DNA of 17,046 nucleotides. Origin: a virus. Taxonomy: Duplodnaviria > Heunggongvirae > Uroviricota > Caudoviricetes. The notes beneath the pieces were generated by a model, which saw nothing but the letters and a program-made list of their open reading frames with translations, had not been told where the DNA came from and did not search any database. The stretch is from the IMG/VR virus record IMGVR_UViG_2651869780_000020, positions 1 to 17,046 of that record; one strand, given 5' to 3'. The stretch's first letter is position 1, and the number at the start of each line of letters is the position of its first letter. The translations under genes and the position numbers were made by a program. This document shows, piece after piece, positions 14,530 through 16,569 of the stretch.

Positions 14530-16569
14530 ATGACAGACATTACAGCCAATGTGATTGTATCGATGCCTTCGCAACTCTTCACTATGGCGCGTTCTTTTAA
14601 AGCCGTAGCCAATGGCAAAATTTATATCGGTAAAATTGACACTGACCCGGTAAATCCTGAAAACCAGATTCAGGTTTATGTGGAGAACGAAGATGGTTCT
14701 CACGTTCCTGTTGCACAGCCAATCATCATTAATGCTGCTGGTTACCCGGTATATAACGGGCAGATTGCCAAATTCGTAACTGAGCAAGGCCATTCTATGG
14801 CTGTTTATGATGCGTATGGTGCACAGCAGTTCAAATTCCCAAATGTGCTGAAGTATGATCCGGATCAGTTTGAAGCAAGATTATATGATGATGTTGGTTC
14901 TGGAAATTTTCCCAGCAAGATGGGATACATACACAACACTTTGCATGCAACATTGCGCACATTGCAACATAAGCTTGACGATATACTATCTGTTAAAGAT
15001 TTTGGCGCCGTAGGAGATGGTTTAGATCATCCTCTTAGCGAAAAGTTCAGCACATTAAGTGCTGCTCAGATGGTTTATCCATTTGTTACCGCATTAACAC
15101 AAACCCAAGATTACGCTGCGATACAAGCTGCGATTAACACTGCTAAATTTATTAACGCAGGCGTGTTTCTGCCATCTGGCCAATACGTGGTAAATACAGA
15201 AATTGTGGCGGATTATGCTCTTAGCTTATATGGCGAAGGCAGCGGTGGTTTGCGTGACATAGCCTCTACAGGTCACGAGGAATCGCCTGTTCGTGGGTCT
15301 GTAATATTGTCTAAAGTAAACCCCGGAAGAACGTTGTCAATTAATAGCACTACAGTTTTTTCATTCGGTATGACATTGCGCGACTTCGCAATATGGGGTG
15401 TGCAAGACTCTTGTGACGTGGGTCTGTATACTAACCATGTAGGTTGGACAGGGATTATGTCCGGTTTAAATATCCAACGCTTCCCAAATCAAGCGTGGGA
15501 GGTGGGCTATATTCAAGATACATACGTGAACAACTGCACTTTTTTGCTCAGCGGTTCTCAAGATAAACCTGCAGTGCACTTCCTTAACGACTCTAACTAT
15601 ATCTATTTCAATGGCTGTCATTTTGAGGGTACTCCTTACTTTATTAAAATGACTAATGCGTGGAACATAGCGTTCCATCATTGCCATTTCGAAGTAGCCC
15701 GTACAGTAAACGGCTCACTGGATGATAGATTTTTTTACCGAAGCGCACCCATTGACCTTGGTGCAAGCTATAGAATTCAATTTTCAGAAAATACATTCAT
15801 ACCGACCGATGTAGGTTACCTGTCGTCGAAACTAGATGTACCAAGAAACCAGGTTCCGTATTTTATGACGGGTTCTGGAGGTAACAGCATTAGCTTCTCT
15901 GGGGATATATTCCTGGCACCAGAAGGTAGTGTAGATGCTATGTATCTGGATTGCACAGCTGTTAGTGTATTGGGGTGTAAATTTATACGAATGTCTCCCA
16001 GCCGCGAATGTGTACATATCACCGACGGACATGTAAGTAATTGCGAGATAGGGATTTCAGCCGCCGAGGACCTAACAAAATTGTACGGTATCTATGTCGG
16101 CAAAGGCGGTGTTTCAAACTGTACCTTTGGTTTCTATGAGTCTGACTCCGGTGGGAAACGAAATGAAGGCGCGCTATTATTTGGAGAGGGGAAGGCTAAC
16201 GGTAATTCATACCCTGACGATGACCGTGTGTATATTTTTCTGGATTCACCAACGAAGGTTGATGGTTACGACGGTGGAGATGCAAGATTCATTACCTTAA
16301 CAGAAAGCACTATTGTAGATTTAACAAAAGTTCATCCATCAACTCATTATAATATAATCGGCTCTTCGGTAGCTATTACTAACATTTATGGTGCTCCACT
16401 AGGCAGAGACCTGATTGTACGGGTGTCTAGTGGTGATCATTCTGGTGTTAAGTACGTAGCCGGTTCTGTCGAAACTAATGGAGCTACTGATTGGGCCGCG
16501 GTGCCAAGCACAAACGCGATATTCAAATGCATTAAAGGACCGGCTGGTAAAGTGATGTATCAGTTATAA
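14530..16569 (+). CDS. Tailspike protein: conserved N-terminal head-binding domain plus a divergent beta-helix-like receptor-binding/depolymerase body
   Basis: 679 aa. The first ~120 residues (MTDITANVIVSMPSQLFTMARSFKAVANGKIYIGKIDTDPVNPENQIQVYVENEDGSHVPV..NVLKYDPDQF) match the P22/Sf6/HK620 tailspike N-terminal domain as recalled. The rest differs from P22 gp9 and has repetitive short beta-strand-like segments typical of right-handed beta-helix depolymerases. Confidence 0.9.
   Translation: MTDITANVIVSMPSQLFTMARSFKAVANGKIYIGKIDTDPVNPENQIQVYVENEDGSHVPVAQPIIINAAGYPVYNGQIAKFVTEQGHSMAVYDAYGAQQFKFPNVLKYDPDQFEARLYDDVGSGNFPSKMGYIHNTLHATLRTLQHKLDDILSVKDFGAVGDGLDHPLSEKFSTLSAAQMVYPFVTALTQTQDYAAIQAAINTAKFINAGVFLPSGQYVVNTEIVADYALSLYGEGSGGLRDIASTGHEESPVRGSVILSKVNPGRTLSINSTTVFSFGMTLRDFAIWGVQDSCDVGLYTNHVGWTGIMSGLNIQRFPNQAWEVGYIQDTYVNNCTFLLSGSQDKPAVHFLNDSNYIYFNGCHFEGTPYFIKMTNAWNIAFHHCHFEVARTVNGSLDDRFFYRSAPIDLGASYRIQFSENTFIPTDVGYLSSKLDVPRNQVPYFMTGSGGNSISFSGDIFLAPEGSVDAMYLDCTAVSVLGCKFIRMSPSRECVHITDGHVSNCEIGISAAEDLTKLYGIYVGKGGVSNCTFGFYESDSGGKRNEGALLFGEGKANGNSYPDDDRVYIFLDSPTKVDGYDGGDARFITLTESTIVDLTKVHPSTHYNIIGSSVAITNIYGAPLGRDLIVRVSSGDHSGVKYVAGSVETNGATDWAAVPSTNAIFKCIKGPAGKVMYQL

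Follow-up and report, generated by a model that had tools for sequence, protein, structure and literature searches.

The window analysed here, a stretch of 17,046 nucleotides (nt) of tailed-phage DNA from IMG/VR record IMGVR_UViG_2651869780_000020 in whose numbering all positions are given unless another record is named, carries near its distal end a tailspike gene that converges with a wzy gene cut by the window end. We compared this DNA with Pfam, the PDB sequences, NCBI proteins, 5426 complete Escherichia coli genomes and deposited phage records. The tailspike of 679 amino acids (aa) is 100% identical to the NCBI protein "phage tailspike protein [Escherichia coli]", which belongs to a 47-member cluster, and our analysis portrays it as a chimera in which a conserved head-binding anchor (residues 1-113) is joined to an acquired module that probably recognises and hydrolyses the O114 O antigen, or a close variant of it, and that appears to have been exchanged together with wzy.

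The tailspike gene lies beyond a complete P22-type virion-assembly block (scaffold, coat, gp4, gp10, needle, gp14, gp7, gp20 and gp16), and distal to genes that matched Phage_stabilise, DUF2824, P22_gp7, Inj_translocase, Phage_P22_gp16, Arc and P22_AR_N/C when Pfam was run on identical contigs; the names given by the Prokaryotic Genome Annotation Pipeline (PGAP) in a related prophage agree with such a block, including immI/ant. The antirepressor gene ant (13506-14429) precedes the tailspike gene. Furthermore, contigs from several E. coli draft assemblies match the window at 100% identity, and on these the prophage ends with wzy, an integrase gene and tRNA-Arg, followed by yfdC/mlaA, that is, at the argW tRNA site. 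Judged by this gene content and these flanks, the tailspike belongs to a P22-like (Lederbergvirus-type) prophage integrated beside intS/yfdC.

Residues 1-113 are matched end to end (113/113) by PF09008 Head_binding, with a score of 215.7 bits (cut-off 24; E = 1.5e-64), and share 96% identity with the tailspike of CUS-3, 95% with that of HK620, 91% with that of Sf6 and 74% with that of P22. The original prediction, made from the DNA letters, had called this N-terminus near-identical to those of P22, Sf6 and HK620, which holds for Sf6 and HK620 (and for CUS-3 too) but not for P22. With PF09008 above threshold, the P22-type gene position and a predicted right-handed parallel beta-helix body, the protein falls among the P22-like tailspikes.

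Beyond this anchor the similarity to known P22-like tailspikes ends abruptly. The solved P22 and HK620 tailspikes align to residues 1-116 only, and that of Sf6 to residues 1-166, weakly beyond 113; for the P22 chains, phmmer and a 55-sequence profile gave the same limit, bearing out the earlier claim that the body does not resemble the P22 endorhamnosidase. At the DNA level, all 31 phage megablast matches were confined to gene nt 1 to ~340-354, and of 1127 E. coli genomes with a match, 1123 likewise aligned with no more than the opening ~340-370 nt; the full-length gene is present at ~98% identity in four complete genomes. Binned by 30 nt, the DNA identity to five relatives stayed for the most part within 0.83-1.00 as far as gene nt 330, with 0.73 in the lowest bin, and past gene nt ~340 it dropped to the background of unrelated sequences.

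The footprint of the exchange became visible when the window was aligned with the prophage of the O114:H49 strain 90-9280, one of the four full-length carriers. The head-binding part differs from it at 33 positions in 342 nt (9.6% divergence), whereas the rest of the tailspike gene differs at 7 in 1698 nt (0.4%) and the segment downstream at 3 in 477 nt (0.6%), a 23-fold contrast between anchor and body (Fisher P = 4e-20). The last clustered difference lies at 14862 and the next one at 14916, so that the crossover falls within codons 112-129 and coincides exactly with the domain boundary past the conserved NVLKYDPDQ motif; the junction had been expected near nt 14880, at codons 115-125, and both the loss of similarity and the differences place it there (~14863-14915, codons ~112-129). 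From 14900 to 17046 the two prophages are ~99.5% identical, and the remaining virion-assembly block is similar only in patches. Because the upstream parts are so patchily related, we read this as transfer of a cassette, comprising the body and the downstream gene, between two different P22-like backbones.

Base composition did not mark this boundary. The N-terminal part has a G+C content (GC) of 0.433 and the body one of 0.431, and GC at third codon positions, 0.421 vs 0.369, differs by about one standard error (z ~1, not significant), so that the suggested AT-richness of the body was not borne out and the GC analysis proposed along the gene revealed no step at the junction. Changes were found on a larger scale instead, with a GC of 0.43 from the immI region through the tailspike, 0.50 in the virion-assembly genes (1-10697) and 0.34 in the downstream wzy.

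A further line of evidence comes from the distribution of the body itself. In the protein search, relatives of 50-82% identity were found behind at least five other anchor types (PF18668, PF03906, Kuttervirus, Ithacavirus/N4-like and 776-aa forms), the shared part extending from residues ~113-153 to the C-terminus. The closest one, at 82% identity, has a PF18668 (Tail_spike_N) anchor, as has a relative of 74% identity that follows a GpJ-like tail tip protein in a temperate siphovirus-type prophage; a Citrobacter protein shares 72%, and a relative in another prophage type 71%. At ~50-56% identity the body occurs in Kuttervirus SS9 (Ackermannviridae), in Ithacavirus FSL SP-076 and other 72-kb N4-like phages, behind T7-fibre-type anchors (PF03906), and in other P22-like prophages of E. 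coli, E. fergusonii and Hafnia. The stop of similarity at codon ~113, the occurrence of the body behind different anchors and the 9.6% vs 0.4% footprint are three independent lines of evidence that uphold the predicted modular exchange of a receptor-binding body behind a conserved anchor.

An AlphaFold2 monomer model, built on a 55-sequence alignment, reached a mean predicted local distance difference test (pLDDT) score of 85.6, mostly >90 from residue ~150. The right-handed beta-helix for which a structure prediction had been recommended thus appears in the model as a high-confidence predicted body from residue ~216. Pfam added a match to PF12708 at residues 192-386 (32.3 bits, cut-off 27), which is marginal and uninformative on the reaction catalysed. 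The helical cap, with DFGAVGDG at residues 157-164 (>90% conserved in the 55-sequence family), is the part that the widest range of otherwise unrelated tailspikes have in common: many of these match residues ~140-238 only in BLASTP, and the tailspikes LKA1 gp49 and phi297 match residues 144-259 only. A second mobile sub-module at residues 140-238 was considered and rejected, as this region is the conserved N-terminal cap (FGAxGDG) of the beta-helix class and the shared similarity reflects family conservation. Within the predicted helix, the acidic residues D285, D296, D330, E366, E388 and D427 are >90% conserved, and so are two CHFE motifs, at residues 363-366 (15616-15627) and 385-388 (15682-15693), which are 22 residues apart and presumably occupy successive beta-helix rungs. 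Our guess from this conservation is that the acidic residues and the CHFE rungs are candidate catalytic or substrate-binding sites.

What might this body recognise? The O114 wzx-wzy pair is present in 9 of the 5426 complete E. coli genomes, and all four genomes with the full-length tailspike are among those nine (hypergeometric P ~3.5e-12 if the genomes were independent, although they represent only two independent lineages). The full-length gene is thus exclusive to genomes with the O114 cluster, in line with the earlier claim of a specificity different from that of P22. Furthermore, a sister body (~50% identical, on a P22-like anchor) occurs in 8 complete genomes, all of them among the 35 with the O5 cluster. 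The O114 and O5 clusters share their architecture (rfbBA, ketoisomerase, acyltransferase, aminotransferase, wzx, wzy, GT2, HAD and GT). The O114 unit, ->3)-a-GlcNAc-(1->4)-b-Qui3N(N-acetyl-L-seryl)-(1->3)-b-Ribf-(1->4)-b-Gal-(1-> (PMC10609480), and the O5ac unit, which includes a-GalNAc-(1->2)-b-Qui3NAc-(1->3)-b-Ribf (PMC9912281), have in common a beta-Qui3N(acyl)-(1->3)-beta-Ribf core (PMC10609480, PMC9912281). Related bodies thus track related O antigens, which favours recognition of the O antigen rather than of a capsule. As the O114 unit is devoid of uronic acid (PMC10609480), beta-elimination would be impossible and hydrolysis is expected, provided that O114 is the substrate. The sister tailspike prophages (L016 3001-6132; L018 3001-6129; L021 21095-30723) adjoin a PBP5-type carboxypeptidase gene, near sbcB and the his operon.

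Among the alternatives, collinearity of the whole protein with one known tailspike lineage, which would leave no mosaic to explain, is hardly tenable. Collinear copies at 98-100% identity do exist in the four complete genomes and in several draft assemblies, but these are the same chimera and not a parental lineage. The sharp loss of similarity at codon ~113, seen against every other P22-like tailspike, the divergence contrast that persists across the junction even within the collinear copies, and the unrelated anchors in front of the body all contradict a single lineage, which the binned DNA identities and the divergence footprint refute. It appears more conceivable, yet still improbable, that the body is directed at a capsule or some other glycan (K antigen, group 4 capsule, colanic acid or enterobacterial common antigen) and that the link to O114 merely follows from clonality. 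P22-like anchors do bear capsule-specific bodies, such as the CUS-3 endosialidase, and the O114 association comprises two independent lineages; against this, the sister body provides an independent second association, with the chemically related O5 antigen (PMC9912281), and in every temperate relative examined the gene behind the tailspike is one for O-antigen-type modification, wzy or Acyl_transf_3. Unlikely, too, is a body acting as a non-hydrolytic binder or as another enzyme (lyase, epimerase or deacetylase) instead of an endoglycosidase, since the O114 unit offers no uronic acid for beta-elimination (PMC10609480), the similarity to LKA1 and phi297 at residues 144-259 lies outside the likely active-site rungs, and acidic residues on consecutive rungs are >90% conserved, as expected of a hydrolase. 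For the O-antigen lyase class of the LKA1 gp49 type in particular, the limited extent of that similarity and the composition of the O114 unit argue against membership.

Several points nevertheless weigh against an O114-specific hydrolase. The three lysogenic genomes of enterotoxigenic E. coli (ETEC) are clonal, as the O5 set seems to be, so that the association with O114 amounts to a few lineages; moreover, it was drawn from complete genomes, whereas the window's own host is represented by the draft assemblies GCA_001285765.1, GCA_001285845.1, GCA_001265995.1 and GCA_001283405.1. The chromosomal flank of that host differs by ~0.9% from the O114:H49 ETEC flank, and the host is therefore another lineage. 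The body may also recognise a feature common to several O types, not O114 strictly. As to the enzyme, the active-site candidates were chosen by conservation, no solved structure in the PDB could be matched by sequence beyond residue ~260-270, whether the query was the single protein or the 55-sequence profile, and NCBIfam holds no family for the tailspike. Taken together, we still regard an acquired module directed at O114, or a close variant, as the probable explanation.

The gene downstream of the tailspike adds a second aspect. This wzy is convergent with the tailspike gene, lies 56 nt past its stop codon and encodes a membrane protein of 441 aa; its full length is contained in L007-L010 (10672-11997 in L007, a draft contig) and spans 18097-19422 in L001, the 90-9280 prophage. 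PGAP names the product "O-antigen polymerase", and its match to TIGR04370 (oligosaccharide repeat unit polymerase) is weak, at 32.9 bits against a cut-off of 40 (alignment residues 44-399). No sequence similarity was detectable between this phage Wzy and the native O114 Wzy, and tblastn against 50,697 deposited phage records gave no match. In complete E. coli genomes, the phage wzy occurs in exactly the same four as the tailspike. Homologues of 48-57% identity were found in a P22-like prophage of Morganella and, within another prophage type, in Enterobacter asburiae and Cedecea. In 3/3 contexts (L024 6001-9783; L026 6001-9864; L028 2375-6241), with homologues of 48-52% identity, the gene converges with a tailspike gene, and the bodies of these tailspikes are unrelated to the O114-linked one. 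Such a fixed convergent position beside unrelated bodies points to a phage-specific Wzy family of set position. Furthermore, an Acyl_transf_3 gene follows the tailspike in both the 74% and the 71% body relatives, and in the sister type the tailspike is likewise followed by an Acyl_transf_3 acyltransferase gene, not by wzy; as body relatives hold Acyl_transf_3 in the position of wzy, the place behind the tailspike would be a general slot for O-antigen modification.

As for the native gene, the chromosomal O114 wzy is frameshifted in 4/4 lysogens and intact in 5/5 O114 non-lysogens, TW10828 and WS0115A being examples of O114 strains without the prophage. Taken at face value this corresponds to a Fisher P of 1/126, although only two events underlie it, both in homopolymers: a change from T7 to T8 near codon 137 and an independent one from T8 to T7 near codon 259. 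Strain 90-9280 carries the former (+T in the T7 tract), and ETEC-2264 and LR882978, being 100% identical to 90-9280 over 3442 nt, are inferred to share it. Behind this decay may lie a takeover of function by the phage Wzy, or else errors of long-read sequencing in homopolymers. In the simplest reading, the phage polymerase took over, and the native wzy was then dispensable or selected against. Extending this, we tentatively envisage the tailspike body and its convergent wzy as a portable cassette to "recognise, then rewrite the receptor". Here the phage polymerase would have taken over O114 polymerisation, the native wzy would have been lost twice independently and only in lysogens, smooth lipopolysaccharide of the ETEC strains would depend on the prophage, and these strains would probably expose a so far undescribed O114 linkage variant able to resist the phage's own tailspike (compare O5ab with O5ac). 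This larger scenario is possible, yet we would not currently favour it.

Seroconverting polymerases are known from phages, namely the beta-polymerase of Salmonella phage epsilon15 and the Wzy-beta of Pseudomonas aeruginosa phage D3, the latter with Iap, and in both phages an inhibitor of the host polymerase brings about such a takeover. Upstream of the present wzy and outside the window, a 414-nt spacer of 29% GC separates it from the integrase gene (L007 11998-12411). This spacer may accommodate a promoter for wzy or encode a small inhibitor of the polymerase comparable to the Iap of D3; a search of it for such an inhibitor ORF (open reading frame) yielded only unconvincing ORFs of 21-37 aa.

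Table 1. Coordinates of the tailspike locus and of the related genes discussed in the text
Feature	Record	Position	Strand	Basis or remark
Tailspike coding sequence	window	14530..16569	+	single 679-codon ORF, 679 aa
Head-binding (tail-hub anchor) domain, residues 1-113, ending in NVLKYDPDQ	window	14530..14868	+	PF09008; PDB N-termini of Sf6, P22 and HK620
Recombination junction between anchor and receptor-binding cassette, codons 112-129	window	14863..14915	+	differences from the O114:H49 prophage; megablast end points at gene nt 339-369
Predicted neck helix (residues 111-124 in the model) and helical beta-helix cap (~140-215) with DFGAVGDG	window	14869..15174	+	AlphaFold2 secondary structure
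Predicted right-handed parallel beta-helix and C-terminal beta-rich part, residues ~216-679	window	15175..16569	+	AlphaFold2 model
Hairpin ACCACCTC-TAAAT-GAGGTGGT then TTTT, between the convergent tailspike and wzy stops	window	16594..16618	.	read from sequence
wzy, 3' part, last ~140 codons, cut by the window end	window	16626..17046	-	open frame; match to "O-antigen polymerase" of L001
Terminator-like hairpin and T-run between ant and tailspike	window	14447..14466	+	pattern scan and sequence reading
Body relative, 74% identity	L029	8001-11209
Body relative, 71% identity	L030	8001-11452
Native O114 wzy, frameshifted	L002 (CP024240)	6244-7576
Native O114 wzy, frameshifted	L003 (CP148334)	2410-3740
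Native O114 wzy, intact	L004, L005, L006, L022, L023			O114 genomes without the prophage cassette

Two hairpins delimit the tailspike gene. The one behind it was not called by the pattern scan and is probably a bidirectional terminator. The one ahead of it has the position of the annotated tANT terminator in HK620, which suggests the same identity by position. Across the region, the promoter and terminator pattern scan gave counts not above shuffled expectation. Further upstream, the immI-like region (10698-14529) contains ant, two genes of the Arc/Mnt type and a gene with a P63C domain (~11184-12152), and its minus strand bears an ORF of 134 aa. Compared with the O114:H49 prophage, additional mosaic break points are apparent at an island of 98% identity (12919-13407), and a break with a 9-bp indel lies at 14094 inside ant. 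The "boundary sequence" bsq1 of CUS-3 was also considered as the junction and rejected, since it sits between ant and the tailspike start and not at the internal junction.

From these results, the following sequence of events may be proposed. Residues 1-113 would plug the tailspike trimer into the tail hub, and residues ~114 onwards (neck, helical cap and beta-helix) would form a horizontally acquired module for receptor binding and depolymerisation. By recognising and hydrolytically cleaving the O114 O antigen, or a very close variant, this module would allow the phage to reach the outer membrane. The module would be exchanged as a cassette with the convergent wzy, its upstream crossover lying at the mapped junction. 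After lysogeny, the phage Wzy would most likely repolymerise the O unit with a different linkage, and the changed linkage would shield the lysogen from phages with the same tailspike.

The mosaic as such is textbook P22-like biology, the protein was already deposited and correctly named, and no concept is changed by it. New here are the probable O114 specificity suggested by the genome comparisons (and O5 for the sister type), the mapped crossover, and the linkage of a phage wzy with apparent decay of the host wzy. The two bodies are candidate receptor-binding modules for O114 and O5, which could serve typing, detection and an engineered host range, O114:H49 being an ETEC lineage. In our view, the wzy linkage is the more interesting lead than the mosaic. 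Should the phage wzy really stand in for the decayed polymerase of the chromosome, O types deduced in silico from the gene cluster alone would mis-describe the antigen displayed. To judge by our searches, E. coli would then offer its first example of what is on record for Salmonella epsilon15, Pseudomonas D3 and Acinetobacter.

The tailspike gene follows ant and closes the virion-assembly block, as do the genes for Sf6 gp14, HK620 gp9, the CUS-3 tailspike and P22 gp9, and its product shares their plan of anchor, neck and, presumably, trimeric beta-helix. In the body, no sequence similarity to the P22 endorhamnosidase, the HK620 endo-N-acetylglucosaminidase or the CUS-3 endosialidase was detectable, and with Sf6 the neck and cap alone align, weakly, to residue 166; the structural identity between the present body and theirs is 12-15%. 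The Pseudomonas tailspikes phi297 gp27 (PDB 4ru5) and LKA1 gp49 (PDB 4ru4) are similar in sequence only in the cap, and differ in hosts, substrate and anchor. The survey of Pas et al. 2023 (PMC10408124), which cites Casjens and Grose 2016 for P22-like prophages, found the anchor, delimited as the first 124 aa of HK620, to be kept at the genus level, and the receptor-binding domain to be swapped across genera including Kuttervirus, tracking the host O serogroup; pairing of prophage and host was used there to predict specificity. The present mosaic corresponds exactly to this pattern of cross-genus swapping. However, O114, which is not mentioned, and O5 are outside the 14 serogroups assigned in that survey, and Ithacavirus, one of the lytic relatives found here, is outside its eight genera.

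With regard to the polymerase, epsilon15 and D3 differ from the present prophage, in which no polymerase-inhibitor gene was recognised and the host wzy is frameshifted instead. In Acinetobacter baumannii, a phage-encoded Wzy takes part in repeat-unit polymerisation (PMC9241936). Epsilon15, D3 and the A. baumannii phages resemble the prophage described here in that each is a temperate phage with a Wzy-type polymerase beside its tailspike or its attachment site.

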